Both the position numbers and the translations under genes were made by a program. DNA of 63,131 bases, counting the filler, from Folioceros fuciformis (taxonomy: Eukaryota): NCBI GenBank assembly GCA_049999805.1. It is 8 parts of 8 records of this genome, joined end to end, with 100 filler letters (N's around TTAATTAATTAA, not from the genome) between each part and the next. Parts side by side here need not be neighbours in the genome. Positions count along the whole stretch, not along the records: positions 1 to 16,109 come from JBNGIO010005141.1; positions 16,210 to 30,657 come from JBNGIO010005144.1; positions 30,758 to 36,729 come from JBNGIO010005146.1; positions 36,830 to 42,455 come from JBNGIO010005149.1; positions 42,556 to 48,792 come from JBNGIO010005150.1; positions 48,893 to 55,656 come from JBNGIO010005151.1; positions 55,757 to 58,856 come from JBNGIO010005152.1; 1 more part is not named here. One strand, written 5' to 3'. Position 1 is the stretch's first letter; each line of letters starts with the position of its first letter. The notes below the pieces were generated by a model. It was not told the DNA's origin. It ran no database searches and saw only the letters and a program-made list of their open reading frames with translations. Shown in pieces: positions 4,171 to 56,774 of the stretch.

Positions 4171-4190
4171 AACCCAGGTGCATCTAAAGG

Positions 4191-6991: not shown

Positions 6992-7255
6992 TGCTGAGAA
7001 TAGGTGTTGATTTATTAGGGTTCAGTAATGTTAGCATTTATATTATGTTTGTATAGGGTTATTATGATTATCATTTTATTACCCCTTCATTAAGAGTCAT
7101 GTCCCTTGGTGTAAGGTTATGTCTCTTCACAACAACTTAAGTTGAGTGAGCCACTTTAACAAAGTTCTCTTATTATAATATTCTCTTTATCTCTTTATCT
7201 TTGTAATTGTTTATTATAGTAGTTGGTCTACACCAATCTGATCCAATATTTGTCA
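6992..7255 (+). repeat. 5' LTR of copia element B (start at 6992 or 7005)
   Basis: Ends TTTGTCA immediately before the PBS; resembles the LTR at 34088-34337 in reverse complement. Confidence 0.75.
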
Positions 7256-7267
7256 TGGTATCAGAGC
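7256..7267 (+). promoter_or_regulatory. Primer-binding site, tRNA-iMet (element B)
   Basis: TGGTATCAGAGC. Confidence 0.95.
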
Positions 7268-7615
7268 CATGCTTTGGTATAGGCTGCATTAATAAGAATG
7301 CACATTAAATTCTGCACATTTTGATGTGCAGATGGATGAATTTGGTTATTGTATTTTGTTGTTGTTTTCTTTTAAAAAAATGTTTTAAAAACATATCAAG
7401 AAAATATTTTATAGTTTTTCTTTGGATTTTATTTTAAAAATTTGCATTTCTAGGAGTTTGTTCTAGAGCATCTATTGACATATTGCATCTTTGCATTCTG
7501 TCTATAGGCGCGCTAGAAAAACTGCCAGAATTGGCAAAAATTCTATTATAGAATCATATACAAAAATTTTAAAATGTTTCTTGATACACAATAAAATACA
7601 AGATTGGTCAAATGA

Positions 7616-8323
7616 ATGGCCAATTTGATGGACGGGCAGCAATGGCGGCCATGCCCTATTGAGCGCAATCGTCAGAGGGATGTCTACAGAAGACAATTTG
7701 CACAAGAGGACAGGCCAACAGTTGCTAAATCACTCTACCAGCAAACCCTGGAGTGGATTCTTCAAACTCAAGATCAGCCTGAGCGCACTTGCATTATAAG
7801 GGAGTCGTATAATAATCTTCTTGATGCTATCTTCCCTCAACAAAGTCACCTGTCGCTTGCTCAACCACCCAAAAATCCTACTAATCTTCCATTTGTCGGA
7901 AATGGTAACCCTAGAGGTTTTCTGACCACACACATTTTACCACATGTTAGTGTGTCACAATTAAATGCTAGAATAGAAACACATCAACAACATGTTGATG
8001 AGCGTTTTCAGAGCATTTGTCACAAACTTGCTTCAGTCATTGTTGACTTACAAGAATTGAAGGAACAAATAGGACATTTGGATTTTAAGTTACTAACCTT
8101 ATTAGAACCTACCTTGCTTGCAAATCCTGCTCTTAGAGGGGTTGCATGCAAGCGTGCAAATAAGAAATATAACTTACACTTCTTCGATGCTCCAAATTCC
8201 TGTCCTTCTTGCTCTACCTATGCATTTAACAGATGGGAGATTAGAAATCAAAGGATTTCACATCTAGCTGCAAACCAATCTGCCATCTTGCCTATGGTAG
8301 ATTACTTTGCAAACCCTTTGTAG
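7616..8323 (+). CDS. ORF0 of element B, 235 aa, unknown function (coiled-coil-like segment, CPSC motif)
   Basis: Open ATG-TAG frame between PBS and gag; colinear protein similarity to 14965-15698. Confidence 0.8.
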   Translation: MANLMDGQQWRPCPIERNRQRDVYRRQFAQEDRPTVAKSLYQQTLEWILQTQDQPERTCIIRESYNNLLDAIFPQQSHLSLAQPPKNPTNLPFVGNGNPRGFLTTHILPHVSVSQLNARIETHQQHVDERFQSICHKLASVIVDLQELKEQIGHLDFKLLTLLEPTLLANPALRGVACKRANKKYNLHFFDAPNSCPSCSTYAFNRWEIRNQRISHLAANQSAILPMVDYFANPL

Positions 8324-8482
8324 ATAGGGCTGTTGCTGGAGCCTATTTAAGATGCAACAGTAGCATCTTACTGCTCCCCTCTTTTCTCTATTACCAGGAT
8401 TGTGTACCTTGTCAGGATAGGTCATAGATCTGCACACAGCCAACATCCTAACAGTTAGGACAGGATTTTCAGAATCCTAAAA

Positions 8483-9257
8483 ATGGCTAACACCACTAAT
8501 CTAAGTGGTGACGGGTTTAAAGAGAAAGACCGGTTTGGGGGGACAGATTATGACATTTGGGTCATGCGTATGCGTGGAGCCTTGCAAAATAAAAGACTAT
8601 GGAAGATAACTACTGGAGAGGAATTACTCCCTGGCTCTTCTTCTCCTAAAGTTACCCCTTCCTCTGCTGAGTCTAGATACCAAGAGGCTTGGTACATTAA
8701 GGATGAAGCTGCAATGTATTTAATAAGAAGTGGACTAACCTCTAATATGCTTAGACAGACTTCTGGATGCAAAACATATGTTGAGATTTGGTCCAGACTA
8801 CAAGATTTGTATGCAGGAGTTAATACCACTAGTCAGATGACTACTCTTAAAAATATACAAAATTGTAGAATGAGAGAGGGGGATACAGTTGAAAAACATA
8901 TTGCGCACTTCAGAACACTTGTTTCTAAATTAGAAAGTGCTTCTCAGGAAATTCTCAATGACGAAATACTTACCTTGTATTTTATGATGTCTCTTCCTGA
9001 CTCTTGGTCACATTTTGTAACCTCATATAATGCTTCTTAGCTTCAGGCTGCTAAGATTGCTAAAGCTGCAAATGTCACTATTCCATAGAAAACATTTTCA
9101 GAGTTAGTGGGAGCTCTTCTTCAAGAAGAAGCAACAAGAGCTCAGAATAAGCGTGTTAGCAAGTAGCAGGCTCTTTACACCACAAACAGAAACAAAGGCG
9201 CAAGTCCTAACTTTAAAGGTAGACAAAATACCTTTCAAGGTGCTGGTAGCTCACGGC
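8483..9257 (+). pseudogene. Copia B gag, with in-frame TAG stops, truncated by insertion of element C
   Basis: FKEKDRFGGTDYDIWVMRM, SLPDSWSHFV, LVGALLQEE. Confidence 0.9.
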
Positions 9258-9472
9258 TGACAATTTTATAAGGATAATGCAGATTTTATTATTATTTTTT
9301 TAAAAGAAGTTAAAATAAAATTGGGATGTGTCTTTTCGCTAAGAGTCGTAACCCTAATGAAGAGGTATTTAACTTAAACCATGTATAGACCTAAGATATA
9401 TATGTTATCTAAATAGCTAACCCTAGGTTACTTAACATGTCGATAACATAACATCGCTTTTATACTTCATCA
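9258..9472 (-). repeat. 3' LTR of element C
   Basis: TG...CA on the minus strand, following PPT AAGTGGGAG. Confidence 0.85.
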
Positions 9473-9719
9473 CTCCCACTTGTTGAGAGCGTGTTAAGTA
9501 CAGTCTTCTGGTATTCCTTGTGCTTGGTTCCTCGTGGGCGTAAAGCCTCTCGAGCTTCAGTCCTTCCCAGCTGCCAACTCTGATTGCTAGTGGCTGGTGC
9601 AATGGAGTGTGAGAATGAGATGCCCCTTACAACCAGGTACGCCTGGTACATAATGACAGCTTACGCTGTCATTGTGCTTCATTTCAAGATTCTAGCTGTG
9701 GAGAAGAGCACTCGCAGCT

Positions 9720-10310
9720 ATGTCTTCTGCTACGACCCCCTCTGATGACGCCCCTCGGAGGCCTCGGGCTTACCATCGTGATGCCCTTGGACGTTTCTCA
9801 GCTAGAACACCTGCTACAGGAGGACGCCACGAACTTGCTGATACTGCTGCCAGGGGTTCCTGCTCATCTCGGCGTCCAAGAGGAAGGCCGCCAGGGCGGC
9901 GTGGCAGAGGAAGGGGCAGGGGCTCGAACGCCGCTGCTGCACCGGACATGGGCGCACCCTCGCGAGGCGCTCCACATGCTAACAGTCCCCGAATTGCAGC
10001 TACAGAGCGCCGGTTTGGTAACGGCGAGTACGCCTACTCTAATTGTGGGGCTTTGCCTCCTATGTCGTTCCACTTTCAACCAATCAGAGACTACAACGAG
10101 GAGACGAAGGTGGTCTGTCCAGGGAATATGAAGCATCCTGGATCGCCACTATGGTATCGCTGCAGTGTGACAGGCTATATCCTGAGACGCGTTAAAGTCA
10201 CCATGTGCAGGGAGTATCCCGCACACGCGGTCAGCTTTTACAGTGAGTGTCTTCAGACACCATGTTTTTCCATAGCCCTGATTACGTTTCTTGTGCTCCC
10301 ACTCGCTTGA
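9720..10310 (+). CDS. Antisense ORF of element C, 196 aa (AT-hook-like RRPRGRPP, RG-rich, Cys-containing domain)
   Basis: ATG-initiated ORF between PPT and the pol stop, on the opposite strand to pol. Confidence 0.6.
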   Translation: MSSATTPSDDAPRRPRAYHRDALGRFSARTPATGGRHELADTAARGSCSSRRPRGRPPGRRGRGRGRGSNAAAAPDMGAPSRGAPHANSPRIAATERRFGNGEYAYSNCGALPPMSFHFQPIRDYNEETKVVCPGNMKHPGSPLWYRCSVTGYILRRVKVTMCREYPAHAVSFYSECLQTPCFSIALITFLVLPLA

Positions 10311-10546
10311 GAATTCCTGACAATCACATGTTGTTGCCTCTTGTAGGGACTGACACCCGGCTGAGGGAGGAGGAGCGTCTCGAATCTGAAGAGCGTATCT
10401 CTTATCAGGAGAGGAGGAGACGTAACAGTCCTCTTGAGGGCGAGAGCTTCACCACATCTGAAGAGCTGAACTCTGAAGATTCTGAAGAAAGAGAGAACAA
10501 CACCGATGACTCTGAAGATGAAGCGAGCTTCAACTGGGATCCTTAG
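10247..10546 (+). CDS. Acidic ORF segment, probably the frameshifted C-terminus of the antisense ORF
   Basis: E/D/S-rich (SEELNSEDSEERENNTDDSEDE); overlaps the previous ORF in another frame; stops 23 nt from the pol stop. Confidence 0.5.
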   Translation: MSSDTMFFHSPDYVSCAPTRLRIPDNHMLLPLVGTDTRLREEERLESEERISYQERRRRNSPLEGESFTTSEELNSEDSEERENNTDDSEDEASFNWDP

Positions 10547-10569
10547 GGCTAGGATTTCCTTTTTGCTGT

Positions 10570-13500
10570 TCAGACTTTGCTGCTAAGGAAGTCTTGCGAC
10601 CTCCCAAGTCCCATACTTTGCATATGTCTGTTGTGGAGTTCACGGCCTAGGGCCTTTTTTAAAATATCTGCTGGGTTGTCTGTGGTTGGCACGTAGTCCA
10701 GAGATATTTTTCCTGCTGTGACTTGTTCTCTAATGTAGTGGTACTCAACTTCCACGTGTTTTGTTCGTGAGTGGAAGATTGGATTCTTTGCTAGAGCCAT
10801 GGAACCCTGATTGTTTGTGTAGACTGTGGTACAGGTAGGTAGATCAATTCCCATTTCCTGGAAGAGTAACTTGCACCATACTATCTCCTTTGCTGCTGCT
10901 GTCAAGACCCTGTACTCTGCTTCTGTGCTTGATAGGGCCACAGTAGGTTGTTTCTTAGATGACCAGCATATGGGGCTGCCAGTATAAGAGATCACATATC
11001 CTGATACTGACTTCCTGGTGTCAATGTCTCCTGCATAGTCAGAATCTGTGAAGGTCTCTAGGTCTAGAGTCTTTCCTTCATGGTGCTCATATTTTAAACC
11101 TACGTCAAAGGTTCCTTTCAGATAACGAAACACTCGTTTCAGGCTCTGCCAATGTTCCTGTCCAGGTTGTTCCAGGAACTGTGATAAAACGCTTGTAGCA
11201 TAGGCTACATCGGGCCTTGTCGTGTTTGAGGCATAGATTAGTTTTCCTACGCCTTTCCTGTATGGCACCTTGGCCATTGCATCCTTTTCTGATTCTGTTT
11301 GTGGACACATTGACTTACTCAATTTAATTCCACTAGGTAAAGGTGTCGATGCTGGTTTTGCATCCTTGAGGCCCATTTGCTCTGCGCAATTCATGAGGTA
11401 TCTCGGCTGTGTCAAAGTAATCATTCTCCTTTTTCTGTCTCTTTGAATGTGTATTCCAAGACAACTTCTTAGAGGTCCGAGATTTGTCATCTCAAATTTT
11501 TGAGCTAACAGCTGGTTGAGCTTAGTAATGTAAGCTTCATTGTTGCAGGTGACAATCAAGTCGTCCACATAGACAGCAAGATAGCAGACTACGTCATCTG
11601 ATCTGTAAACGTACAAACTGCCATCTGCTTGACATTTTACAAAACCTAGAACACGCAGCTCCTCATCTAGGACTGCGTTCCATTCCTTAGCTGATTGCTT
11701 GAGCCCATACAGAGTTTTGATTAGCTTGAGGACATGGTCCTCCTTGCCTTTCACTTCATATCCTGGAGGCTGCTGCATATATATCTCTGTGTCTAATTTC
11801 CCATGTAGGAATGCTGTTTTAACATCAAACATTTCTAACTCATAGTCTTTGTGGGCTGCAACAGCACAGAGGATACGAAAAGTTGCCATCTTCACAACTG
11901 GAGCGAAGGTTTCCAGGTAATCTAGTCCTGGTACTTGTGAAAATCCTCGGGCTACGAGTCTAGCTTTATACCTGTCAAAGGTACCATCAGCTTTCACTTT
12001 GAGTTTGAAAATCCATTTACATGAGACCATTTTACGGCCTGGAGGTAACTTGGCTAGCTCCCAAGTTCCATTTTTAATCAAAGAGTCATATTCTGACTGT
12101 ATGGCCTTTTTCCATTCAGCAGCATCAGGTCGACTAAGTGCCTCCTCATATGACTGTGGCTCTATAGGATCCAGCAATAAAGAGGTGACATGTGCTGTCC
12201 GAAAATCATGTGACTGATAAAAATCTGGAGGATGTCTTTCACGCTGTGGGTAGCGTCGTTCAGGTTGAGCAGCAGGGAGTGCTGGCTGCAGAGGTGCCGA
12301 GTTGTCATGAGCTACCTGGTCAGCATCACCAGCTTCAACTTCAGCTACTGCGTCCTCCACATCTGAGTCCACATCAAGAGGTAAAGGATCGAGAGGATGT
12401 GGCTGCAGTACTGGATCAACAGCATCCCCAAAAACTGGTATAACGCGTGCCATGTCAGGTTCAAAATCAGGTGCTGGTGGATCCTCTTGTTCCCCACCTG
12501 CAGGAGCAACATCCTCAGGAAGATCCTCAAAGTATGATACATCCTGTTCAAGATGTTCCCAACTGTCATCCTCGAGAGCATAATTGTCTGAAGCTCCCAC
12601 TGGCCAGAAACGATTTTCATCAAAGGTAACGCTCCTGGAGTAGATGACATGATTGGCTGGCACATCATATAGCTTATATGCCTTGATGCCTTCAGTGTAA
12701 CCTAACATCAGCAATTTCTGGGCTTTGTTAAACAGCTTCTTGCGCTTCTCCCTGGGGACGAAGGCATACGCAACACAACCAAAAGTCCTCAAATGCAGGA
12801 TCTTGGGCTTGTGTCCATAGAAGGCTTCATAGGGAGTCATCCCTTCAACAGCACTAGTAGGCAACCTGTTCCTTAGGTAGACAGAGGTTGTAAGGGCTTC
12901 TGCCCAGTAGGACAGGGGGAGGTGAGCATGATTCAGCAAGGAAGATGTCATCTCCTGCAGAGTAAGATTCATATGCTCAGCCACCCCGTTCTGTTGAGGT
13001 GTGTAAACAACTGTAAGCTGCCTGGCAATTCCTTCATCTGTACAGAAGGTCTGAAAGTCATGTGAGGTAAATTCCCCACCGTTATCTGAACGCAGGGTTT
13101 TCAGCTGCTTCCCTGTCCAGCGTTCTGCAAACTTCAAGTAAGCTTTGAAATGTGAAAAGCATTCACTCTTGGCCTTGAGGATATAGGCACTAACAAAACG
13201 GGTTTTGTCGTCTGTAAAGGTAAGGAAGTATCTCCCACCACCGAGAGAAGGCTTTGACAAGGGGCCACATAAGTCTGTGTGCACCAACTCCAAGACTTCA
13301 GATGCCCTATGAGGAGCTTTATTTCTGAAAGCTGCTTGATGGCGCTTAGCAAGAACACAAGGTTCACAAAGAGGTAAAGGCACTAATTTGCCTATAGGGC
13401 CATCTGTATAGAGATCACTTACGGCTATCTTCTGTAACTTGCTGCTGTGTGGGTGACCTAATCTAGCATGCCACAACTTAGATTTGGCTATCTGTTGTGT

Positions 13501-14912
13501 AGAGGCTTGGGAGTCCTCATGTGTCAGATGGGACTGAACTGCACCTCTGGAGCTGTGAAGACGAAACAGGTCATGTTCTGAAGACCCATAAGCTAAAACC
13601 TTGCTAGGATTAAAAGCATCTATCACCTTACACTCTGTATGTGTGAAAAGTATGTGACTGTTATTGTCTATGTTCAGTCGCCTAACGGAGATGAGATTTC
13701 GTGTCATCTCAGGTACATAATACACGTCTAAGAGTGACAAAATAACTCCAGATGGCACAGGCAGCTGTACTGTTCCTATGCCTGGAGAGACAAGTGATCT
13801 ATTATCACCAAGATAGACGAATTGGTCCTTTACTGACCTGTAAGTCTGAAATGCGTTTCTATCAAAACACATGTGAGCAGTGGCACCTGTGTCTAAGTAC
13901 CACTCTGTCAATTGTTTAGCACTTGTTTTTGCTGACAGACATGTGGGTGCAGGGACAGAGTTTAGATACTGCCCTGTCTCAACCATAAGGGCTGATGGCG
14001 ATGGCTGCTTCTTGACCACAATGTTGGTCTCAGCGTTTCCCTCCTTGCGAGGTAAGCCAGCTTGCTTTTTTCTGCATTCTCGTTCCCAGTGTCCAGGGAT
14101 TTTGCACCAATTGCACACCCCTGGTTTCTTACTCTTCTTCTGCGCAGACTGTGTTGAGTGGCCTCCTTGCGAGCCACCACCTCGGGACGAACTAGATCCA
14201 CGGCCTCTGGAGTATGGCCTTGCGCCACCTCGCCCACGGTTGGATGTAAACAGCGCTTGCTGCTTGCCAGCACGCCTGCCTAGTCCTCCTCTGGTCGCCT
14301 CCTCTTCTAGGAGGGACCCAACAAGCTCTGCGAATGTTAATTCTGGTACCTTAAGACCAGCTGACTTAGCTAGCTTGGCTACCTGCAACTGGGATGCATG
14401 AATGGATGTCACAAAGTGTGACCAGGATGGGGGTAAGGAGAGCAACAAATAGAGTGTTAGCATCTCGTCCTTAATTGTCTCGCAAGTAGCATTTTCTAGC
14501 TTTGAGACTAATGTTCTGAATGTCATGACATGTTTTTCTACAGATTCTCCTTCACGCATCTTGCATTGCTGAAGGTTGCTAAGGGCTGACAGCTGATTTG
14601 CGGAGTTCTTTCCAGCATACAATTCTTCAAGACGACCCCAGATCTCTTCTGCTGTCTTACAGCCAGCAGTTTGTCGCATCATATCTGCTGTGAGGCCGCT
14701 CCTGATGAGGTACATGGTCGTGCCTCCCTTTGCTGTGAAGTTTCTCCTTCTTCTGGCAAGTCTGACCCTGTTGTGGTGTTCCAGAGTTTTCTGCTCTGGA
14801 GTGCGCCTTTCATGCGCATTACCCATATGTCATACTGACGACCGTCGAATCTGTCTTTTTCTTTAAAGCTTTCTCCTCCTCCAACAACTGATGAGGAAGC
14901 TGTGTCTCCCAT
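10570..14912 (-). CDS. Copia C Gag-Pol (gag, PR, IN, RT, RNase H) with one frameshift near 14720
   Basis: True start MGDTASS (14912). Motifs CNWCKIPGHWEREC, YLDTGAT, LVHTDLCGP, LRSDNGGEF, YVDD, STEAEY. Small deletion relative to B gag (AWYIKDEAAM). Confidence 0.95.
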
Positions 14913-14964
14913 TGCGGGAGGTATACAGAGGTGATGAGGCTACTGGCTACTACCAAGGACAGAT

Positions 14965-15698
14965 CTACAGGAGGGCAGCTAGCATGTTGACAGGTCTGAT
15001 AACCTCATGTAAGCTAGCTGATTGTTGTGCCTCCTTTTCTGCTATCTGTTCCTTCCTAATTGTGAACCTACTGTATGTGTAGGTTGCACATGATGGACAG
15101 GAGTTAGGATCATCAAAACGCTGATTTCCACTAGTGCACTTAATTGATCTTGTTGTAAAAGTGCGAGATTCAGGGTTTTGAGCAACTCAGGTTTCAGCAA
15201 AACATGGATTTTGTAATCCAAGTGGTAAAGTTGCTCCCTCAGATCCTGTAAGTCCACACTCACGCCTGCAATGCTTTTGTTCAGATTTACGTAGCGCCTG
15301 TCAACAAACAGGGCATGTAATTCTATTCTGGAAATGATCTGTGAAACTGTGGCTGGTGGTGCAGGCTGAGTTGTTAGGAAACCATTAGGGTTTCCATGCA
15401 CGTCCAGGGCGGGTCTGAGGCGCGGCTCCAGATGATTGGCTTCTGCTGCCTGCTCACGGGGATCAACAAACAGTTGCTGGTAGTCAGGATAGAGGGTAGA
15501 AACCAAGAAATTGTAAGCCTCCCGCAGTCGAGTGCAGTGGGCAGGCCGGTCCTGATTTCTCAACGTCCACTCTTGTGTCTGCCGGTGCAGGCGATCAGCA
15601 ACATTTCTGTCATTTAAGGGTCCCCTGAGAGATCGACTGCGCAGGTTGATGCGCTCAGCAGGTCGAGGCTGCCACATCTGGCCCTCGTTCTGTGCCAT
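14965..15698 (-). CDS. ORF0 of element C, about 244 aa after correcting a 1-nt frameshift in an A-run near 15178
   Basis: The shifted frame continues NPESR...FDDPNSCPSCATYTYSRFTIRKEQIA, matching B ORF0 FDAPNSCPSCSTYAFNRWEIRNQRIS. Confidence 0.8.
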
Positions 15699-16061
15699 CT
15701 GTGATGGCTTGTAATTTGGTTGTAAGAATGCTAATTTTATGCATTCTGTTCATTATTATTTCTCTATTTACATAGTAATTTGCACTATCTAGCAGGTGTT
15801 CTAGTGTAGTTCTATGAGAATTGTTATTGAAAAACAATCTGAATAGAATTGCACTAGAATACAGCTACTAGATCTGCAAATTAACAAATTGTAAATAAGC
15901 AAATAAAGAAACAACCAGAAAACTTAAGTTCTTGATTTTGTTTTTGGTTTCATTTCAAGAAAACATTCTTAAACATAAAACAACCAAAAACGCATGTTTG
16001 TGCGCATCCTAAGGTGCACAATTTTATGTGCATTCTCTAGAATGCAACCTGCATCATCACA

Positions 16062-16073
16062 GCTCTGATACCA
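16062..16073 (-). promoter_or_regulatory. Primer-binding site, tRNA-iMet (element C)
   Basis: TGGTATCAGAGC abutting the LTR CA. Confidence 0.95.
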
Positions 16074-16109
16074 TGACAATTTTATAAGGATAATGCAGAT
16101 TTTATTATT

Positions 16110-16209
16110 NNNNNNNNNNNNNNNNNNNNNNNNNNNNNNNNNNNNNNNNNNNNTTAATTAATTAANNNNNNNNNNNNNNNNNNNNNNNNNNNNNNNNNNN
16201 NNNNNNNNN
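16110..16209. other. Artificial contig spacer (also 30658-30757, 36730-36829, 42456-42555, 48793-48892, 55657-55756, 58857-58956)
   Basis: Identical 100-bp N44-TTAATTAATTAA-N44 six-frame-stop linker, seven times. Confidence 0.99.
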
Positions 16210-17044
16210 GAGCAATAGGGACCCTACCTTCGAAGGGGACATTCTCACCCTACGTAGGGAAGGAACCTCAAGTTGAAGAACAAGTGGATCCCTTCCCTAC
16301 CAAACCTGTAGGTGGTGGTGAAGGGATATCCCAAGAAATCCACGCAGAGGAAGGTACAGTGGAAGTTCGTGGATCCAAAAGAAGACGAATCCCAATTATG
16401 GAGGAGGGCCCAGTAGCTCAACCTTCAGACTCTGCCTCCCTTCAGGAGCCATCCTAGCCACACCTGTTTGAAAAGGGGGTCAATGAATCTTCTATGGCGG
16501 CACCGACAGTCATAATCTTCATCGGTGCGCACTGCCCTAGCAATTATTGGTAGGACTTAGCCTCTTGGTAGGTGTGCGCAGTCAAAGTTGGTGGTGCCTA
16601 GTGTGAGAGAAGGGTAGTCCACCACCTACATGTAGGAGAGGGTTTATGTGTCGATCTCTCCTACAAGGAGGGGCTACACAAAGAAATGAACCACCACATT
16701 CTGCACTCTTCTCATGGCGAGTTCTCATGCTCAGCAGAGCGTAGGAATCTCGTTGCCGGCTATATGCCATCACAACGCCTGGTTGTGGCTAGAGTTGCAG
16801 TGGTCGTAGTGCTTGGCGGAGGGCTCATATTCTTCCATGGGCACCCCTGCAAGTTGCTTCCCTTGTGAATGGTTGTCTTGTTGCTGTAGGTGTGTGGCAA
16901 TACCTGTGTGGCTGTTGGCTTGAGGGTAGACTCCAGGGAAAGACTTCTTGGAAGTTCTTGCTAACAAGCGCAAGCACGCAACAACCAGCCCAAGGAAAAA
17001 CTTGTTGGTCGTTGGACGTAGGGAGATGAGCAGCTGGATCATTG

Positions 17045-17545
17045 TGGAAGGTGTTGTGAGGAGACTTGTGATGAAGGGGTGTTGGGTGTAGGTAGTTAGA
17101 AATTGGTAGGGGAAGGTACTGGGGCCCTTCCAAGTGAAGGAATGGTGCCTTCCTATTGACTAGACGTGTTGAAGGTATGAGCTAGGGAAGGTTGAATGTC
17201 GAAGGTGAGCGATAAACACAGTTGGAGGGAGAGGAGTAGGCTCGGAGGAAAACTTGGTCGTTGGGTGTAGGGAGACGAGTAGCTAGATTGTGGGTTGAGG
17301 AAGGTGTTGTAGGGAGCCTTGTGAGGAAAAGGCATTGAGTGTAGGGAGGTAGAAATCAGTAGGGGAGGTATTGGGGCCCTTCCAAATGAAGGAATGGTGC
17401 CTACCTACTAACTGGACGTGAGGAAGGTGTTGTAGGGCGCCTTGTGAGGAAAAGGTATTGAGGGTAGGGAGGTAGAAATTGATAGGGGAGGTACTTGGGC
17501 CCTTCCAAGTGAAGGAATGGTGCCTACCTACTGATTGGACGTGTT
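17045..17545. repeat. Three diverged direct repeats of about 120 bp
   Basis: GAAGGTGTTGT...GGGCCCTTCCAA[G/A]TGAAGGAATGGTGCCT recurs near 17045, 17300 and 17421. Confidence 0.85.
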
Positions 17546-17720
17546 GCAGGATTGGTAGGTATGTGATTGGGAGGGTTGACTATTGTAGGGGAACGATATA
17601 CGTAGTTGACTAGGCTTAGAGGGAGCGATTGCGGGGAAGCCTACAACGACCATGGGATTGATGTGGCCACAATACATGTGAGCTGGTGCCTGGTAAGGGT
17701 ACCATACCCGCTTGCCCACA

Positions 17721-22049: not shown

Positions 22050-22217
22050 CCACACGTGCGCTGTTGGGGACAGATCTTGGACAAGATGATGGCTCCTGGG
22101 GGTGAGTCACAGCAGGTGGACTTGCCAAGCTTGACTGCAGTGATGGTGTAGGCTCAAGCGGACATGTTGGACCAGGCTGCGAAGGCACTAACCTGGTTGA
22201 GTATGCAGGGGCAGAAA

Positions 22218-33620: not shown

Positions 33621-33625
33621 CTGAC

Positions 33626-47409: not shown

Positions 47410-47419
47410 TATTCAAATA

Positions 47420-47854
47420 TTAAGAGCGGGGCGCACGTGGGCGTCCCGGTGAAAATAACCTAGCCTCATGCACACGCTTCTCCTCTTCAGTTGGAGTAGA
47501 CAGCAAAAATAATTGTTGAATTCCAGTTAGAAGAATAGAGAGAAAATCTTGTAAATTATGGATCTGATGAGATGCTTCCCTCAAATCAGCTTCAAGTTGT
47601 CGTTGTAGAAAACTACGAGAAAATAATGAAGGTGAATGATGAACAGGGCCTCGATTGGAAATACGTCTAATAAAACGTTGTGGTTGGCTGCTCATAAAAT
47701 GTTGTTGAAAGGTTCTTTCACAAGACGCCTTCAACTTGCAATCTAAACAAAAGAAGCCACGATCTGATCTGGGTGGCGGTGATGGTGGTGAGGCTTGAGG
47801 GTGAACTCTCCTCCACTGCGCACAAGAAGATGTCCTGCGCTTAGGCATCTTCAT
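47420..47854 (-). CDS. ORF0 of element F, 144 aa (zinc-finger-like motif plus coiled-coil-like segment)
   Basis: FFCLDC-x12-H; LQRQLEADLREASHQIHNLQDFL; stops 10 nt before the gag ATG. Confidence 0.55.
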   Translation of the reverse strand: MKMPKRRTSSCAQWRRVHPQASPPSPPPRSDRGFFCLDCKLKASCERTFQQHFMSSQPQRFIRRISNRGPVHHSPSLFSRSFLQRQLEADLREASHQIHNLQDFLSILLTGIQQLFLLSTPTEEEKRVHEARLFSPGRPRAPRS

Positions 47855-49198
47855 CCGCGTCTCAGCATCATCAATTATAGCAACATTGACAACTTGCTGT
47901 GTCTTTCACACGCCGCAGGCCATGGCTCCAAGCAATCGTGATGAAGCACGAAAATCGAAGGCACTCCTGCCCAGCATGTGACACCGGCCGCGAGGCGCAT
48001 CCATCCACCACCCGGCTACAAAACCTGGTTGTAAACACTCCGAAGTGGTGAAAATCAAAACTGGTCATGGCCGCAGTGGTGCCGACAGCGCCGCGATGGG
48101 GCTTGGAAGGCACAGGCGTGCAGATATCAGGCTGGCTTCTTCACCATCGTCTATCCACAGAAATCTTCACATCCAAAGAGCCTGTGGGTGCTCCAAACTA
48201 CAAACTGCGCCTCAGAGAGCGCCAACCGGATTGCATGCTAGGCGTCCCTGGTGGACGATTTGATTCAGGGCGCGTGCGACCATGGGGCTGTCATCTGCTC
48301 CCACTGCCCGGCTTCAAATTGCCATGCGAAGCCCTCCTTTTGTTGTACGCGCTTCAGGCCGCAGCATGCCGAAGGGAAATCACAAGACGAAATGCTGAGA
48401 TCGCACGCCGCGGACTGGAATTATCGTTGCAGGCTGCCTTCTCCATCCCTTGTACAGTTTCGAGTTGAGCCTTCAGGCCGAAGCAGCCATCTACCTCCTC
48501 GCGATTCTCCACACTTCATAAAATTAATAAAATAGGCATGAAAGCCACGTTTCTAATCACAATTTCAGATCGGGCAAGTGAGTCAAATCGATTGCCATGG
48601 CTCTGATACCATTTCGCATTGTGTGGATTGTGGGAGAGAGAGCACGGGAGCGAGAGCGCACGAGGCACGAAGGGCAAAGGTAGTTATCGTTGTATCAAAA
48701 AAGAATAAAAAAGAGTATATATGAGTATTTTAAAAGAGTAGTTTTAACTGATTATGAAACTACTAACCTAAACTAACATAATTTCCTTTACTNNNNNNNN
48801 NNNNNNNNNNNNNNNNNNNNNNNNNNNNNNNNNNNNTTAATTAATTAANNNNNNNNNNNNNNNNNNNNNNNNNNNNNNNNNNNNNNNNNNNNAGCCAAAC
48901 CCTAAAAACAGAAAGGTATATCTAAATATGATAAGTTAAGCATATGGCAGCTTAACCCGTAACACCCCCTCTTAAGCTCATAAGCTTAACTAACGAACAA
49001 TAAACAAGCCCGGCATCATCCTAAAGCAAACCCTTCGTAAACGAAAGCGGTACGCGATGCCACGTGAAGCTGCTCATAGCAGCTGGACGACTCAAACTCA
49101 TAACTTCACAGTCACGTTCCTGGCACTGTGCTTGAGTAGCGCCCAACAATCTCTGTACCGCGGCAGCCCGAAGAAGAATAAAACCAAGCGCTGGAGCC

Positions 49199-49636
49199 AT
49201 GGCTAGCAACCTTGCCTCTTTGATCGCCGGAGCTGAACTGCTGTGTTTCCTGTGCATACATCTTCTCCTGCGGTGCGCCATGAAGACTCGAAGTGGCAAG
49301 GCGTACAAGGGAGCTGCGCGACCGAGGAAAAACAGGAAGAACAGCATACCGACTCTGCCAGCTAATGTTTACGAGCTGCTGGACAAGAGGCAGGCTACTG
49401 CCCGCGGCTGGGACTGGGACTACAAGACGTGCTGGGGCCAGAGGATTCACTTGGGTGCCTATCACATGGAACTGAGCGTGAACCTAATCTGGGGAAAGGT
49501 GAAGCGAGGGGAAACTCCTAATCTGCCTTTGTACGCTATTGGGGAGGAAGGGAAACAGACCTTGATCAGCCAGCTGGAGGACACCATTGAAATGCTGGAC
49601 AGAATTAAGGACGTGATGCCGAGAGAGGAGGAGTGA
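49199..49636 (+). CDS. Antisense ORF of element G (145 aa, or 118 aa from MKTRSGKAY at 49280)
   Basis: Open frame between PPT and pol stop; basic N-terminus, aromatic core, helical acidic end. Confidence 0.6.
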   Translation: MASNLASLIAGAELLCFLCIHLLLRCAMKTRSGKAYKGAARPRKNRKNSIPTLPANVYELLDKRQATARGWDWDYKTCWGQRIHLGAYHMELSVNLIWGKVKRGETPNLPLYAIGEEGKQTLISQLEDTIEMLDRIKDVMPREEE

Positions 49637-49717
49637 AGGCCGAACCAAACAGCCAGGTGATTAGATGCTGAACTGGAGCTTCATCCAACCTGGTTTGTCA
49701 GGATTTTCCAGAGTTAC

Positions 49718-52700
49718 TTAGTTCTGCTCATAGGCTGTGAAATCAATAAGCCCTAGGCCTTCCATATGCTGGTAGTGTAGATGCTTGGGAAGGCCCTTTG
49801 TAAGGATGTCTGCCGTATTTTCATTTGTTGGAACATGGCAGACCTTTATAATACCACGATGAACCACATCTCTAACATAGTGATGTTGAATTTCAATGTG
49901 TTTCGTGCGTGCATGAAATTTAGGATTTGCAACAAGCGCAAGAGCGGACATGTTGTCACATAGAAGTGGGGTTGGCTCTGTTTGCTGTTGCCCCAAATCT
50001 GTCAAAAAGGTTCGTATCCACTCTGCCTCCTTAGAGGCCTCTGTCAGACTCTTGTACTCGGCCTCAGTTGACGAGAGGGCAACTGATGTTTGTTTCTTGC
50101 AGCTCCAGTTGGTGACAGCTGAGGAGAGGAGAAAACAATATGTAGAAAGGCTTCGACGTGATTCTGTGTCTGATGCCCAATCAGCATCTGTGAAGCCTTT
50201 CAGCGTAAGTTTCTGCTGTCCAGTGCTTCTGTATGCTAGTCCATAGGACTGAGTACCCTTTAGGTAGCGGAAGACACGTTTGGCTGCCTGCCAATGAACT
50301 CGACCTGGATTTTCCAGAAATTGGGATAGGGTGCTGACTGAATACTGGATGTCCGGTCTTGTCCAGTTAGCTATAAAAATTAAGCTTCCTATGGCATGCC
50401 TGTAAGGGACCTGTGCCATCTCCCTCACCTCATCTGCACCTTGTGGACATTGCAGACTAGTGAGCTTAGTCCCTATAGCATATGGTGTAGTAGATGGCCG
50501 GGCATGTTCAAGCTTAAACTTATGTAGCAGTTCTTGAACATATTGATACTGATGAATGATGATCAACTTCTCAGGTCTGACCCTTAGTAACTGAATGCCA
50601 AGGCAGAAACGTAGCTCACCGATATCCTTCATTTCAAACTTGTTGCTCAGCATTTCTTTGACCTCAGCTAACAAGGGTTGGCTATTAGTTGCCAAAATCA
50701 CGTCATCAACATACAGTGCTAGAATGACGTAGGCAGTTCCCTTCGTTAGCTTGTAAACAGTACCATCAGCTGAGCTTTGAACAAATGAGTTGTTAATCAA
50801 GTGCTCATGTATAGTGAAATACCAGACTCTGCCACTCTGTTTCAGACCATAAATGGTCTTCAGTAGCTTCAGAACTTTCTTTGGATACTTAGAGTCTTCA
50901 TACCCTTCTGGCTGTACCATGTAAAGGTCTTCATCTAACGCACCATACAAGAAAGCTGTGCATACGTCCATTTGCTGCAAGTCCAGGTCAAACTCGGCTG
51001 CTAGGGCGATTATCATCCTAATTGACTGTGCCCTAACAACAGGAGAGAATGTTTCCTGATAGTCTAGCCCTTCCACTTGCGTGAATCCCCTTGCAACCAG
51101 TCGTGCTTTATATCTGGCAATCTCTCCCTTAGCATTCAACTTTAACTTGAAAACCCACTTGCAGGAGATAGGTTTTCTGCCAGGTGGGAGGTCTACTAAC
51201 TTCCACGTGTTATTCTTGACGAGAGAATTGTATTCATCGTCTACTGCAAACTTCCACTTATCTCGTTCAGGACCTGAATATGCTTCTGTTAAAGACTTGG
51301 GCTCCAGGTGTATAGTGCTAGAAGCAGAATTGCAGATGTCGGCATATGCTGTTCTAAAGTCGATTGATTCATAACGTGGCTCTTTCCATTGTTCTGGTGG
51401 AGGACGATTTCTAGTAGAACGTCGTAGAGGAGGATCTGGCTCTTCATCTTAAACAGGAAAAGGCTGTTCATCGTCCTCAGGTACATGTTCCATGACCATT
51501 TGATAATCATCATCTCCAGCTGCTAGATCAGCATCTGGATTAGGGAAAGGTACATCCTCATACTCATATGGATCACGGTCAGGATTAACAGCAACATTTG
51601 CCGGCTGATGCTGTACAGGTGGAGGGGGTATGAGGACTGGTTGAGCAGGGGGAGGTGCAATATCAGCAGGTTGGACAGTTGTATCATCTCCCTCGTCATG
51701 AGTGTCATTATCAGGAAAATGAACAGCGTCGTCTGATAGCTGAGGTATGCCATTTTCTCCCTCTGCTGCTGGGTGGCCGATTATGAGGGGCCTGTCAATC
51801 TCAAGAAATGTGACAGAACGTGCTAACACAACGCGCTGATTTGCAGGGTCATAAAGTTTGTAAGCTTTGGACTGCTCACTATACCCGACAAAAACAAGAG
51901 CTTGGGCTCTCGGATCCAGCTTCTTCCGCTTCTCCTCTGGGATGAGAGCAAAAGCACGTGAACCAAACACGCGTAGATGTAGCAAACTGGGTTTGCATTT
52001 CCAGAAAGCCTCATATGGAGTCTGAGAGGGGACTGAACTTGTAAAAAGTCGATTGAGAATATAGGTGGCAGCAACAATGGCTTCAGCCCAATACTCTTGA
52101 GGTAAGTTAGCCCACAATAACATACTCCGTGTCATGGCCAGCAAGGTTTGATTTTTCCTTTCAGCTACGCCATTCTGTTGCGGAGTGTAGGGGATTGTAA
52201 GTTGACGTTGGATCCCCCTCTCTTGCAGGAATGTATCAAAAGCCTCATTGACGAATTCTGTTCCATTGTCAGTCCGAAGGTACTTGACAAAAGAACCAGT
52301 CTGTTTTTCAGCAGTCAATAGCCAATCACGGAAGAGCTCGAATGTATCACTCTTCAAGTGCATCGGGAACGTCCAAGTATACCGAGAATAGTTGTCAGTG
52401 ATGCAGAGGTAATATATAGAACCACCCAGAGATGGGACATGTATCTTACCTGAGATGTCTGCATGAACTAACTCAAGGACAACTGATGCTCTGTAGGTTG
52501 CTGAAACTGGAAAGGGATGGGCCTTCTGTTTAGCAACAATGCAGGCTTCACAAGAAGGTAAGTCCTTGAAAATCTGTGGAAGAGGCTCAAGGTGGCACTC
52601 TTGCAGTGACATGTCAACTAGTTTTCTCTTATTAACGTGACCAAGCCGTGCGTGCCACAGGACAGCAAGACGTTGGAACTTCTCAGAGACAAGGCTAGCC

Positions 52701-54169
52701 TGGTGTCGGAGGGTGCATAAATCAAGTCTATACAGATCATGATCTAATGTACCTTTAAATGCCAGCATTGAAGGCTCTGACCTCTTGTAGAAGAGACAAG
52801 TATCCTCACTAGCTGTCATGTCATATGCTCGAAGCTGCATCAGTTTGCTGAGAGAGACCAAGTTCTTCGCCATGGATGGCACATAGAGTACATTTTCCAG
52901 GGTAAAAATGGATCCATCGTGCAAAGTGAATTTACACATGCCACTGCCATGGATTTGGAGACTGGACTGATGTCGTTCATCTCCCAACAGCACTCTTTCA
53001 GCCATTCTGTTAGATTGCAGCACATAAAACTGATCTTTGCTTCTGTAGATGTGAGATGTGGCACCAGAATCCAAGTACCAACCATCTTCATCACATATGG
53101 AACGAGCAAGGCAGATTGTTAGGATCTTCACCACAGGTTTGGTGTCACCAGATGTCTTCTCCTTAATCGCAACAGTTGCAGAACTAGTTGAGCTTTTAGG
53201 AGCACGTTTAGGTTCCCCTGCCTTCTTTTTCTTGCATTCCCTGGCCCAATGTCCAGCTATACCACACCAATTGCAGTTGCCTAGACGTTTAGTTGGACCA
53301 GCGGAATCAGAACCTTGGCCAGGTTTACCTCCAACTTTTCCTTTGCCTTTGAATGATTTGGGAGCTGTGAATAATGCCTTCTCCGTTCTAATTTTAGAAG
53401 TGTTTGAAGAAAACATCCGGCTTTGCTCCTCCTGATACAAAGCGCCTATGACATCCTCTAATGTGATGTTTGCAGCACTTCCAGCAGCAGCAGCAACATT
53501 CGCAGCTCTCAAGGGTCCATTCTGGCTAGTAACAAAGGATTGGTACGATGAAGGGAGTCTCGCGAGGAGTTCAGCCACAGCATCTACTTCCTCCATCTTC
53601 GTACCAGATAGAGAAGCCATCTGGGCTCTAAGGTGACGGAATTTACTTGTGAAAGCCGCTACCTTATCCCCCTCTTTCATCCTCAAGGCATAAAACTCAT
53701 ACTTAACACCAACAAGGGTCAGTACATTTGTAGCCTTGTATGTCTTCTCCAGTTGTGTCCAGATTTCAGAAGCTTTGTCGAGAAACTCGACCTGGGAAAT
53801 GAGGTCAGTATGCAATCCTGCTATTAGTAGAGCAATTGCAATGTTGTTCAATTCATCCCACTCAGCGATCTGATCTGCAGATGGTGCTGGAGTTGCATTG
53901 GGGTCGGGCTGGGGGGTAGTCCCATCCACTATTTTCCAGACACGTCGGGCTAACAAGATGGACTTCATCCGGATACGCCAGACAGCGTAGTGTGAGCCGT
54001 TAAACCGATCTTTTTCTTTCAGCTCTGACGTGTATGTGGGTTTAACTACTGTAGACATGATTGCTGGAGTATTCTGGTTATGGATTGCAGCGGTTACAAA
54101 CTGTCCAAGACTAAGTGCTTGAAACAAGCTACTTAAGGTATCCACAGATAAGAGGGGTCCTGTGGACAT
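49718..54169 (-). CDS. Copia G Gag-Pol with a single in-frame TAA at 51449-51451
   Basis: The two ORFs share a frame; readthrough gives DEEPDPPLRRSTR...NTWKLV. Confidence 0.95.
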
Positions 54170-54794
54170 ATGAAGCTAACGAGGTAATGTGAGCTATGGC
54201 TCAAACTACACAGGTCAGAGTACAAAATGCCCTTAAGACTTTGCTATGAAAATTACAGCATCTACTGATGTGTACCTAACAAGATAAGATGCAGGAGCTG
54301 TTACCTGGTCAACAGCATACAGGAGAAGGGATAGAAAAGCTATCCTAGCTCAGGTGTGCTGATGTCCAAGGTCAATAACTCCTGTTACTATGCATACAGA
54401 CTGTGGACGAAAAAAAACAACAAACAGCTTATCGCTTCAGTTTTGCCCTAACTTATGCAAGAAACGACGGTTGGTGTTTCAGTTTCAAGTTAAGCAGGAG
54501 CAAAGACGTCTCTTCAGGACTCATGAGAACAACAAAAGGGGTTGCAGCAGGTGTCAATCTCTGCCTCAACAGTCGCAAGAATCCCTGCTTCTGTACATCT
54601 GGCAGCAACCATAACGCGGCTTCGGAATAGGTCGCGGCGGTTGCAGTCTGGCGCTTCACATCACGCAGGGCGCCCTTCGCCTGGAGAGAACACAGCACTT
54701 CTGACCTCAAAGCTCCAGGTGTGCCGTTCTGCCAGCTGGCGATGCTGCGCGAAGAGGCATGAAGACACACGCGACGCCTCACACCTCGTTGCTC

Positions 54795-55424
54795 TCAGGC
54801 AGCGGAAGGTGGAAGATGTGGGAACACTGCAGCCTGCTGAATGATCGGAGCAGCAATCTCCAATCTTTGCAGGTGATCAGTGATTTCCTTTATCTTCAAT
54901 GTCCATTTCTCGTTGAAAGCATCGAAATTTGCCTGAGCTTGCATGTTGTTGACGAAAATTCTTGTGTTGATTGATTCTGTTGTGTTGAGAATCTCTTTGA
55001 GGGAAGCATTCAGCAATCTAGAGGCGGCCTCGTTGTGGCAATCGCAGGAGGAGCCTCCACTAGAAGAAGGAACTGTATCCACAGATCGAACCGGTCTTGG
55101 TGGTCTGTTGGAGTTGGTAGTAGCAGCAGATGCCCGCGGTATGCGAGATTGCCTCTGCTGCCTGTCCCTCCTCTGATCTTTGTAAAAACGGTCACGGGCC
55201 TGGTAATCTCTAATTTGAAAATCCCTTTGCTGGAGTTGCCGAAGTAGTTCGGCACGCTCTCTGTCCCTTGACCAATTTTGGTTACAAAGACCAGTTCTTC
55301 CCACCAGTGAATATGCAAGGGCGTTGAGTCCGGCTGGAGCTGTCCTAGGGGCTTGTGTGTAATTGTCACATCTGCAAAAACGTGAGCCACGCCCCTGACC
55401 GACAGATCCACCGTGCCGAGGCAT
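54795..55424 (-). CDS. ORF0 of element G, 209 aa (R/Q-rich, CxC motifs, C-terminal coiled-coil-like segment)
   Basis: ATG about 38 nt after the PBS; FNEKWTLKIKEITDHLQRLE. Confidence 0.6.
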   Translation of the reverse strand: MPRHGGSVGQGRGSRFCRCDNYTQAPRTAPAGLNALAYSLVGRTGLCNQNWSRDRERAELLRQLQQRDFQIRDYQARDRFYKDQRRDRQQRQSRIPRASAATTNSNRPPRPVRSVDTVPSSSGGSSCDCHNEAASRLLNASLKEILNTTESINTRIFVNNMQAQANFDAFNEKWTLKIKEITDHLQRLEIAAPIIQQAAVFPHLPPSAA

Positions 55425-56774
55425 TATCGATAACGAGAGAAAAACATCAGATCCTTAAAAGGCTCTGATACCATGTTAAGTATCATTACATAATCATTTG
55501 CTAGATTTGACTATAGCTAAGAGGCTTAGGCAGAGCACACACAAACATGTGTATCCAGAAAATGAATTAATTGAACATATCAAAAAGGTCTCATATGTGT
55601 TCATTAAATAGCCAAACCCTAAAAACAGAAAGGTATATCTAAATATGATAAGTTAANNNNNNNNNNNNNNNNNNNNNNNNNNNNNNNNNNNNNNNNNNNN
55701 TTAATTAATTAANNNNNNNNNNNNNNNNNNNNNNNNNNNNNNNNNNNNNNNNNNNNAGCCAGCCGTTGACAATCGCTTAAATTGCTCCTGGCAGAAATCA
55801 AGCGCCTGCCTCCGTGTTTGTTCAGATGCAGTTTTACCTACCCTCTCTCACAGCTCAACTGTTTCCTGCTCACATGCTTCAGTAGGTTCACGGCATCCAG
55901 GACGGACAACCAGGCAAACATATCTCCCTGCTGGGATCGTCGTCGCCTGAAATGATTGTTCTCCCGACTTTGGGAGATGCACAAGGGGCGCTCTTCGCAC
56001 CCCACGCTCGCACCCCCCAAATTCCAGAGCGTCTTCCTCACTCTCAAAGCCCTGCTGGAATCTGTCATAAGGTGAGCCTACAAAATTGAAAATTGGTGCG
56101 GGGTTGGACGAAAGCTTGGCCAAGGTCAGGCAGATGGACAGTACCTTGTGAGGGCTTCCGAAACAGGCCGCTGTGCGAGGAGCTTGAAAATCGCTCCCAG
56201 AATCATTCCAACAGCGGCATAGCTGTAACACATCAAAACCATGTTCACGTCCTGCGCCAGAATCCGATACACTTGAAAGCCCTAGTACTGGAAGGACAGG
56301 AAACGTCCATTGCGAACCTTGTTCTTGGACAACACTTGCGCATGAGAGACTGGATCAAACTCGGCCTTCACTCCGGAAACTAGAACGTCCACATGTGCGA
56401 AGCTCGTTTTATCAGGATGCTGGGGGGACGGCGGGGGTCGCACGACATTCTTACGCTCTGCAGGGAAGGAACACAGCCATGTCATCCTTGACCTGTGCAA
56501 CGTGTTGCAAAGACAGCGTCCTGCGTCCTGGGGAACGTTCAGGGCATGCCCTCCCATCTTGCTTCGTGAATTGTAGCAGGGCTGTTCGGCGGACTGCTAA
56601 TTGTTGCGAGTGAGTCCCTACTTACGTACCTACATTGGAGCTCGAGCAAGCACTCAGTCCACTTGGCGAGTTCACGGCCATGCTTGTGGAGCGATCCAGA
56701 AATCCTCCCAGTGGGCCTCGTGTGGGGCAAGCGACACAGTGAGATGGCACTCACGTCCATGGGTACTCTTGCAC

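Follow-up and report, generated by a model that had tools for sequence, protein, structure and literature searches.

The stretch of DNA analysed here, referred to below as the window, comprises 63,131 nucleotides (nt) from Folioceros fuciformis (NCBI GenBank assembly GCA_049999805.1) and contains a group of Ty1/copia long terminal repeat (LTR) retrotransposons that carry open reading frames (ORFs) outside gag-pol. These extra ORFs are found in two positions: a sense ORF, called ORF0, in the leader that separates the primer binding site (PBS) from gag, and an antisense ORF between the end of pol and the polypurine tract (PPT). An earlier examination of this DNA, the sequence-only reading, had proposed for positions 7005-55656 a “complex” copia lineage in which both positions are accessory-gene slots. 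The boundaries of that range are exact, 7005 being the first base of the LTR of the element labelled A below (TGTTG...) and 55656 the last base of the contig that holds the element labelled G, but the range is not one genomic stretch.

The window as a whole consists of eight separate contigs (1-16109, 16210-30657, 30758-36729, 36830-42455, 42556-48792, 48893-55656, 55757-58856 and 58957-63131) which are chained by seven linkers of 100 bases each (16110-16209, 30658-30757, 36730-36829, 42456-42555, 48793-48892, 55657-55756 and 58857-58956), every one made of 44 N, TTAATTAATTAA and a further 44 N, rather than of a single locus. Because the contigs have been joined in this way, distances and neighbourhoods across the spacers are meaningless. 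The contigs abound in nested Ty1/copia elements and come from one host, probably a plant. A tblastn search with two long polyproteins located nine copia pieces, which are labelled A, C to H, Y and Z in this analysis; the B and D of the sequence-only reading are not matched to particular pieces. The nesting is real: C lies within the gag of A, A lies 128 nt behind the pol of Z, and E lies in the leader of another element, whose PBS is at 33809.

The most informative elements are A, C and G. Element A (7005-9257, plus strand) retains its 5' LTR (7005-7255, 251 bp, TGTTG...TTTGTCA), directly followed by the PBS (7256-7267, TGGTATCAGAGC, of tRNA-Met type), ORF0 and a gag (8483-9257) that is interrupted at 9257/9258, where C has inserted. 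Element C (9258-16109, minus strand) is complete save for most of its 5' LTR, which is lost at the contig end; it has a 3' LTR of 196 bp (9258-9453, TGTTATG...AATTGTCA), the last 36 nt of which recur at 16074-16109, a PPT in the form of a purine-rich tract before the 3' LTR (9454-9482, with a 19-nt match to the corresponding tract of E), a gag-pol (10570-14912) that consists of a 1418-amino-acid ORF and an N-terminal piece in another frame, separated by one frameshift near 14700-14826, close to where gag begins, and a PBS at 16062-16073. Element G fills the contig at 48893-55656 on the minus strand, where the first 72 nt of its LTR (48893-48964, TGTTACGGG...) are continued at 55609-55474 to give an LTR of about 208 bp in all; its PPT is at 48965-48973 (AAGAGGGGG), its gag-pol (49718-54169) occupies one frame with a single in-frame TAA (51449-51451) between integrase and reverse transcriptase (RT), and its PBS (55462-55473) stands directly after ...CTTAACA.

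Two further elements contribute to the comparison. Element E (34088-36729, minus strand) is a 3' half, with a 3' LTR of 237 bp (34088-34324, TGTATTG...TTTTGTCA) and the RT-ribonuclease H (RT-RH) part of pol (35269-36729), which is cut by the contig end and is 72% identical to that of C. Element F fills the contig at 42556-48792 on the minus strand, and has a gag-pol in a single open frame of 1536 amino acids (42793-47403), about 190 nt of 3' untranslated sequence and a PBS at 48600-48611. The contigs of F and G each hold one copia element and bear identical 47 nt at both of their ends. These contig-end repeats were considered as tiny LTRs and rejected: the ends are identical, the part from PPT to PBS is therefore present once, and the two LTRs of each element were collapsed by the assembler. 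Full LTR pairs are not comparable in A, C, E, F and G, because they are collapsed or cut in the assembly.

The remaining pieces are less complete. Element D (22218-26008, plus strand; PBS at 22535) carries an internal deletion and LTRs that are 86% alike; a GC-rich stretch, open in every frame, stands in place of its gag, and LTR copies related to those of D occur in the next contig at 31545-31829 and 32924-33221 (minus strand), one of them with short internal repeats. Y is a gag fragment with a leader (gag 3085-4170, minus strand; PBS at 4906), Z is an RT-RH fragment (pol 5149-6877, plus strand), and H is a pol fragment (58957 to about 61400, plus strand). Sense ORF fragments that include a CCHC knuckle follow about 40 nt behind the pol of H, at 61442-62700 on the plus strand; they look like the decayed gag of another retroelement and give no Pfam match.

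In C, F and G the Pfam domains follow the order Retrotran_gag_2, Pol_BBD, gag_pre-integrs, rve, SH3_retrovirus and RVT_2, and since integrase precedes RT in all full elements, these are Ty1/copia and not gypsy elements. The LTRs are short in A, C, E and G, which also have TGT...CA ends (the LTR ends of F are not canonical), the elements measure 6.2-6.9 kb, and a purine tract adjoins the 3' LTR. The motif TGGTATCAGAGC has eight matches in the window compared with 0.4 expected and directly follows the LTR, and judged by this site the elements appear to be primed by a tRNA-Met-type PBS.

The relationships among the elements were determined from 427-428 aligned RT-RH columns. The database rows were the best 120 hits to residues 620-1536 of F, which run from integrase to ribonuclease H, and 117 of these were usable; a reduced tree of 48 rows contained seven window rows and 41 database rows chosen for subclades, with five long-branch rows and 71 others omitted. 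In these trees C with E, F, and G with Z and H, together with one database protein (P0016), form one clade that leaves all other database rows outside, a result that holds relative to rows picked by their likeness to F rather than to named reference lineages. Support for the clade is 95 in a FastTree analysis of 124 rows, 94 in a quick IQ-TREE run on the 48 rows, and 95 by ultrafast bootstrap and 94 by the Shimodaira-Hasegawa-like approximate likelihood ratio test (SH-aLRT) in a careful IQ-TREE run on the same 48 rows. The single copia clade of the sequence-only reading is thus upheld for the C/E, F and G/Z/H groups (95/94), but D lies outside it, where it groups with Citrus and Paspalum rows (100/96). 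A, which lacks an RT, joins C through a gag that is 59-63% identical; the gag of Y is closest to that of F (44%). Between families gag is 28-34% identical, and F shares at most 51% identity with its closest database relatives. The A/C/E, F and G/Z/H families would, on the account that we consider the probable one, make up one copia clade whose members have in common short LTRs of about 200-250 bp, leaders of unusual length (1.2-1.3 kb) and a primer site of the tRNA-Met type.

The leader, measured from the end of the LTR to the ATG of gag, is 1227 nt long in A, 1161 in C, 1208 in F and 1304 in G. The presence of ORFs in these and other regions was evaluated by comparing the longest ATG-started ORF on each strand with those found in 500 dinucleotide-preserving shuffles of the same region. 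Three leaders contain a sense ORF that no shuffle equalled in length (0/500 in each case): the ORF0 of A (7616-8323, plus strand, 235 amino acids, between PBS and gag), that of C (15010-15698, minus strand, with an open frame of 218 amino acids at 15042-15698) and that of G (54795-55424, minus strand, 209 amino acids, beginning 37 nt past the PBS and ending 625 nt before gag). The leader ORF of F (47420-47854, minus strand, 144 amino acids), which ends 16 nt before the gag-pol ATG, is marginal: 15 of the 500 shuffles have an ORF as long, and an antisense ORF of 133 amino acids in the same GC-rich leader scores similarly (20/500). The leader of D is a GC-rich stretch open in all six frames, whose longest sense frame has no Met, and the 747-nt leader of Y (PBS at 4906, just outside 7005-55656) contains no sense ORF of at least 60 amino acids. 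The tally is therefore three solid leader ORFs (A, C, G), one marginal (F) and two absent (D, Y). Of the five leaders (A, B, C, F, G) that the sequence-only reading had credited with a sense ORF, A, C and G are confirmed and F is doubtful, and the fifth could be paired with no real ORF. At 30511-30657 (plus strand) the PBS of another element is followed, after 26 nt, by an ATG frame that is open to the contig end (37 codons) and may be a leader ORF of the G type.

The strongest evidence that any of these ORFs is a gene comes from the comparison of A and C. Their ORF0 products are 38.6% identical over 171 amino acids (E 6.5e-31), with a local alignment z-score of 42.9 that no shuffled sequence reached (0/300 as high). 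Over 161 aligned codons the proportion of synonymous differences (pS) is 0.75, which is saturated, compared with a proportion of nonsynonymous differences (pN) of 0.39. In the gag of the same two elements pN is 0.20-0.28, and since the value for ORF0 lies above this, ORF0 is constrained, though to a lesser degree than Gag. The final 52 aligned residues of the ORF0 of A match the leader of C at 44% identity in a shifted frame (15150-15010). The copy in C is therefore frameshifted near 15150-15180, and the ancestral protein had about 225-235 amino acids, with a shared PNSCPSC(S/A)TY motif near its C-terminus. Similarity that persists beyond a frameshift points strongly to real coding sequence. 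ORF0 of A and C is thus an accessory gene that is under amino-acid constraint and evolves faster than Gag, and its predicted product is mostly helical.

This gene is preceded by a leader segment with features of its own. The first 220 nt or so past the PBS form an AT-rich non-coding block (A 7256-7476, plus strand; C 16073-15842) in which A and C share 68-69% nucleotide identity, and the whole stretch of about 350 nt from PBS to ORF0 is AT-rich in both (GC 0.27-0.31) and contains 8-11 upstream ATGs. The conserved block could be a packaging, promoter or splice signal. When all leaders were compared by tblastx and blastn, only those of A and C matched each other.

At the other end of the elements, the space between the pol stop and the PPT contains an ORF on the strand opposite to gag-pol in three cases, all on the plus strand of the window: in C (9720-10310, 196 amino acids, 1/500 shuffles as long), in E (34488-35081, 197 amino acids, 0/500) and in G (49199-49636, 145 amino acids, 1/500). 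The sense strands of the same regions show nothing comparable, since their longest ORFs are equalled in 82 (C), 72 (E) and 25 (G) of 500 shuffles; no sense env-like 3' ORF of the kind that marks SIRE elements was found, the longest 3' sense ORFs being matched by 25-82 of 500 shuffles. The space between pol and LTR is about 190 nt in F, which leaves no room for an ORF, and about 50 nt in D. The sequence-only reading had counted antisense ORFs in three of four complete 3' ends; the three are the same and exceed chance, but the complete 3' ends number five (C, D, E, F, G). Its full layout of PBS, sense ORF, gag-pol, antisense ORF and PPT is borne out in C and G, both of which lie on the minus strand.

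The antisense ORFs are not shared between families, nor even within one. Comparison of the 3' regions of C and E by tblastx and blastn found no similarity in six frames beyond the end of pol and the 19-nt match in the PPT, and because the RT-RH parts of these two elements are 72% identical, the lack of similarity between their antisense ORFs is informative. The ORFs of C, E and G are mutually unrelated, with all pairs at chance level. Z and H are of no use for the 3' ORF of G, Z being cut after 128 nt by A and H being replaced about 40 nt past pol. If these ORFs are functional, they would have to turn over much faster than ORF0 or to have been gained separately; with their non-random frames, they are best read as fast-turnover, family-specific extras such as have been reported before in LTR retrotransposons, and probably not as an ancestral third gene. 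Amino-acid constraint between diverged copies was found for ORF0 of A and C only (the window contains no second leader-bearing copy of G or of F), so that the conservation among copies looked for in the sequence-only reading is present in that pair and missing from the unrelated antisense ORFs of C and E.

The comparison of leader ORFs between families is harder to interpret. Sequence and local-score comparisons among the ORF0 of G, the leader ORF of F and the ORF0 of A and C gave no pair above chance, and a profile comparison of the A/C ORF0 with the G and F ORFs returned a probability below 1%. This lack of similarity is uninformative, because gag itself is only 28-34% identical between these families and ORF0 evolves faster than Gag: where the gags of A and C are 59-63% identical, their ORF0 products are 39-42% identical. 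Codon use was scored with a table trained on the gag-pol of the clade, each ORF being measured against its own shuffles. The z-scores are 3.2 (A), 2.5 (C) and 3.2 (G) for ORF0, 1.5 for the leader ORF of F, and 2.6 (C), 2.5 (E) and 0.7 (G) for the antisense ORFs; five known coding pieces range from 1.65 to 4.95 and seven presumed non-coding ORFs from -2.1 to 2.0. The test is weak but consistent with the ranking of the extra ORFs. Over the antisense ORF of G, a frame on the sense strand has the better codon score.

Checks of the HHpred and Foldseek kind, which had been suggested for the extra ORFs, found no domain, homologue or fold. Pfam searches with eight extra ORFs gave nothing below E 0.03, a sequence search of the PDB with the A/C profile, the ORF0 of G and the antisense ORF of E gave nothing below E 0.19, and a protein atlas yielded no usable match for the ORF0 of G or the antisense ORF of E (best score 0.79). 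An AlphaFold model of the ORF0 of C, built from a two-row alignment, is poor (predicted local distance difference test score, pLDDT, 39.8) and predicts helices at residues 30-69, an unstructured stretch and a long helix at 118-167, that is, an unstructured N-terminus, a helical block, an unstructured linker and a long C-terminal helix. A single-sequence model of the ORF0 of G predicts helices at 47-93 and 126-198 (pLDDT 71-92) with an unstructured linker, and a Foldseek search of the PDB with this model found 0 matches at E 0.001. The similar length and the same predicted order of parts in the ORF0 of C and G are compatible with distant kinship, although they are no proof of it. The ORF0 of G is basic, with 31 lysine and arginine residues compared with 19 aspartate and glutamate residues. 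The antisense ORF of E has a hydrophobic segment at residues 32-50, that of G has a hydrophobic N-terminus, and that of C has a low-complexity stretch rich in RG.

The account that we favour, and hold to be rather more probable than the rest together, is that the elements belong to one clade in which ORF0 of A and C is a real gene, the ORF0 of G is likely to be a second 5' accessory gene (whether gained independently or related but too diverged to be recognised), and the antisense ORFs would be family-specific and of fast turnover. What we regard as solid within this account is the existence of a long-leader copia clade and of one family in it with a constrained 5' gene that has no kin. The proposal of the sequence-only reading went further, in that the ancestor of the clade would have had both slots, one for a sense ORF0 on the 5' side and one for an antisense ORF on the 3' side, the two ORFs being functional and now too fast-evolving to match. 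C and G do carry both, in the same position and orientation in two subclades of a clade that holds; the three antisense ORFs exceed chance, unlike the longest sense ORFs of those regions; the loss of similarity is to be expected of an ORF0 that is faster than a gag already reduced to 28-34% identity; and the ORF0s of C and G are alike in length and helix order, while the antisense ORFs of C and E are nearly equal in length (196 and 197 amino acids). A three-gene plan shared by the clade is nevertheless not supported: F has no 3' region for the second slot and a marginal ORF in its leader, the leader of Y lacks a sense ORF, and D falls outside the clade. The similarity of C and E in RT-RH, set against 3' regions that share only the end of pol and the PPT match, the absence of profile similarity among the ORF0s, and the codon z-score of 0.7 for the antisense ORF of G, whose opposite strand does better, also speak against a common ancestral origin, and we consider it unlikely. 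A more detailed version, in which a fast-evolving ancestral helical ORF0 is expressed from the long leader and a 3' antisense slot has been repeatedly refilled, is to be held equally doubtful.

The opposite view, that all extra ORFs except the ORF0 of A and C lack a function and stem from composition, from decayed sense coding or from chance in a comparison of many regions, accounts for their lack of homologues and domains and for the lack of conservation between C and E. ORFs of 112-133 amino acids for which no function is claimed occur antisense inside pol and in the leader of F, the antisense ORF of G has a weak codon score and a better sense frame over it, and other open frames, of 90-128 amino acids, overlap that of C, which contains an RG-repeat stretch. 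It is harder to reconcile with the fact that the antisense ORFs of all three long 3' regions are equalled in 0-1 of 500 shuffles and the leader ORF of G in 0 of 500, or with the codon z-score of 3.2 and the confidently predicted long helices of the ORF0 of G, and we judge it slightly less likely again than the ancestral two-slot proposal. A third explanation, according to which ORF0 is an N-terminal part of Gag that is joined to it by recoding or by splicing of the 130-630-nt gap, would remove the special mechanism that translation of Gag after an ORF of 200 amino acids otherwise needs, and it can point to N-terminal Gag extensions in elements of the clade (about 120 amino acids in F and 90 in Y) and to the 16 nt between the leader ORF of F and its gag-pol ATG. 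The frame of the ORF0 of A is, however, conserved up to its own stop, no similarity was found between ORF0 and any Gag extension, and the gag of A and of C starts at an ATG of its own whose context is conserved, which together make this explanation very improbable.

Several observations weigh against the favoured account itself. The conservation of ORF0 comes from one pair of copies, A and C, of which the latter is itself frameshifted; the gene status of the extra ORFs is read from their sequence, and the function proposed below for ORF0 from composition and predicted helices. The codon test separates coding from non-coding ORFs poorly, and two antisense ORFs inside pol reach z-scores of 1.9-2.0. 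A HMMER search with the A/C ORF0 profile against 1.84 billion representatives gave 0 matches, as did a word-indexed protein search, restricted to proteins of near length, with the ORF0 of C and with that of G. Contigs from two DNA runs (X1 and X2), from which the window itself may derive, contain a single form of the leader and 3' part of G, with no differences. In a further run of the same sample (X3) nearly all differences over G are C>T or G>A: at 48976-49222 the changed positions are 25 of 25 CHH sites, 0 of 15 CG sites and 0 of 12 CHG sites, and in the eight contigs listed the differences agree in number, to within 0-2, with the CHH sites on one strand. If X3 is read as bisulfite-type data, this implies, among the rows listed, that G is methylated at CG and CHG sites along its whole length, ORF0 and antisense ORF included.

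The pattern of CG and CHG methylation is typical of plant heterochromatin, and methylation of the plant type fits the grouping of D with angiosperm copia elements. A run that was guessed to be RNA (X4) gave no alignment. Joints 54811-55461 and 53080-54769 in X1 and X2, whose sides are 21-32 nt long, were taken for patchy matches of another family and rejected as deletion variants.

If ORF0 is expressed, it would be made from the sense RNA of the element. In A and C the 8-11 upstream ATGs mean that plain scanning from a full-length LTR transcript would rarely reach ORF0, and its translation would probably depend on a shortened or spliced leader, on a start inside the leader or on internal entry. 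In G the ORF0, placed 37 nt past the PBS, is preceded by one short upstream ORF. The gag start lies 129-159 nt beyond ORF0 in A and C and 625 nt beyond it in G, and because gag is so far downstream, Gag-Pol would need reinitiation or a spliced RNA. The ORF0 protein, helical and partly basic, would most likely act in cis as a nucleic-acid- or Gag-associated helper in the formation of particles or ribonucleoproteins (RNPs); as the main alternative, it would counter silencing by the host.

Extra ORFs in LTR retrotransposons are well documented, and are reported both upstream and downstream of gag-pol and in both orientations, most of them having no known domain (PMC7264820, cited here, like the papers that follow, from parts of its text). 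In Ty1/copia elements, extra ORFs of at least 250 codons have been described in 582 elements and sorted into 45 dissimilar groups and four classes (5'F, 5'R, 3'F and 3'R), and have been interpreted as fast-evolving or independently acquired (PMC6317226). The premise of the sequence-only reading, that copia elements encode only Gag-Pol apart from the SIRE ORF, was too strong in view of these 582 elements. In the sections of the same survey cited here, SIRE is the only copia lineage named as typified by an extra ORF, and the sequence of that ORF is highly heterogeneous; the copia lineages described there with a half-tRNA-Met PBS are Osser, Bryco and part of Gymco-II (PMC6317226). The cut-off of 250 codons in this REXdb copia survey means that ORFs of 144-235 amino acids, as found here, would not be listed (PMC6317226).

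Among the systems described, the closest parallels to the two ORF positions are spread over different lineages. Tekay elements (ORF0 of rice Retrosat2 and the 5'aORF of sunflower Tekay 13-2) are reported to have, as here, a sense ORF between PBS and gag that is conserved in the family, has no known domain and is predicted to contain helices and disorder (PMC11728184, PMC3485330, in part). By description, which is the level of this comparison, Tekay is a gypsy lineage with an ORF of about 400 amino acids, whereas the present elements are copia with ORFs of 209-235. The antisense 3' ORFs of the gypsy elements Grande (gene23, maize), RIRE2 (rice), Retand (Silene) and PvRetro13 (bean) likewise lie between pol and the PPT or 3' LTR and have no known domains; they are described as kept in most copies and conserved like the other proteins of the element (PMC7264820), whereas those found here sit in copia elements and are unrelated even between C and E. 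SIRE elements, the textbook case in copia, resemble the present ones in that a further ORF lies between their pol and 3' LTR, but the SIRE ORF is in sense orientation (PMC6317226) and the examples given for bean have LTRs of about 1.7 kb and a length of about 10 kb (PMC4093653), compared with about 200-250 bp and 6.2-6.9 kb here. In the open-access literature searched, no copia group was found described as having a conserved 5' ORF, or as combining a 5' ORF with an antisense one on the 3' side.

Extra genes are common in LTR retrotransposons but poorly understood, and most cases that are conserved throughout a family are gypsy elements. A constrained 5' gene without known kin, in a copia family, would be a tractable case for the study of function, for example in particle assembly or in the evasion of silencing, and the shortness of the ORFs described here indicates that surveys with a cut-off of 250 codons miss such a class. 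If the 5' gene were ancestral and the 3' antisense slot repeatedly refilled, the clade would parallel, within copia, those gypsy lineages that carry accessory genes, having two additional gene positions next to gag-pol.

Other features of the window lie apart from these elements. The contig at 55757-58856, which is without copia sequence, contains a complete U1 spliceosomal RNA gene at 56953-57111 on the minus strand (Rfam RF00003, 124.8 bits). The segment 18001-20000 has a GC content of 0.66 with a strong GC skew, and a low-complexity ORF of 265 amino acids in or near it (19472-20269, minus strand) was judged to be compositional. Tandem repeats are present at 1683-2012 (11-nt unit), 28314-28628 (35-nt unit), 37105-37753 (155-156-nt unit) and 41320-41519 (100-nt unit).

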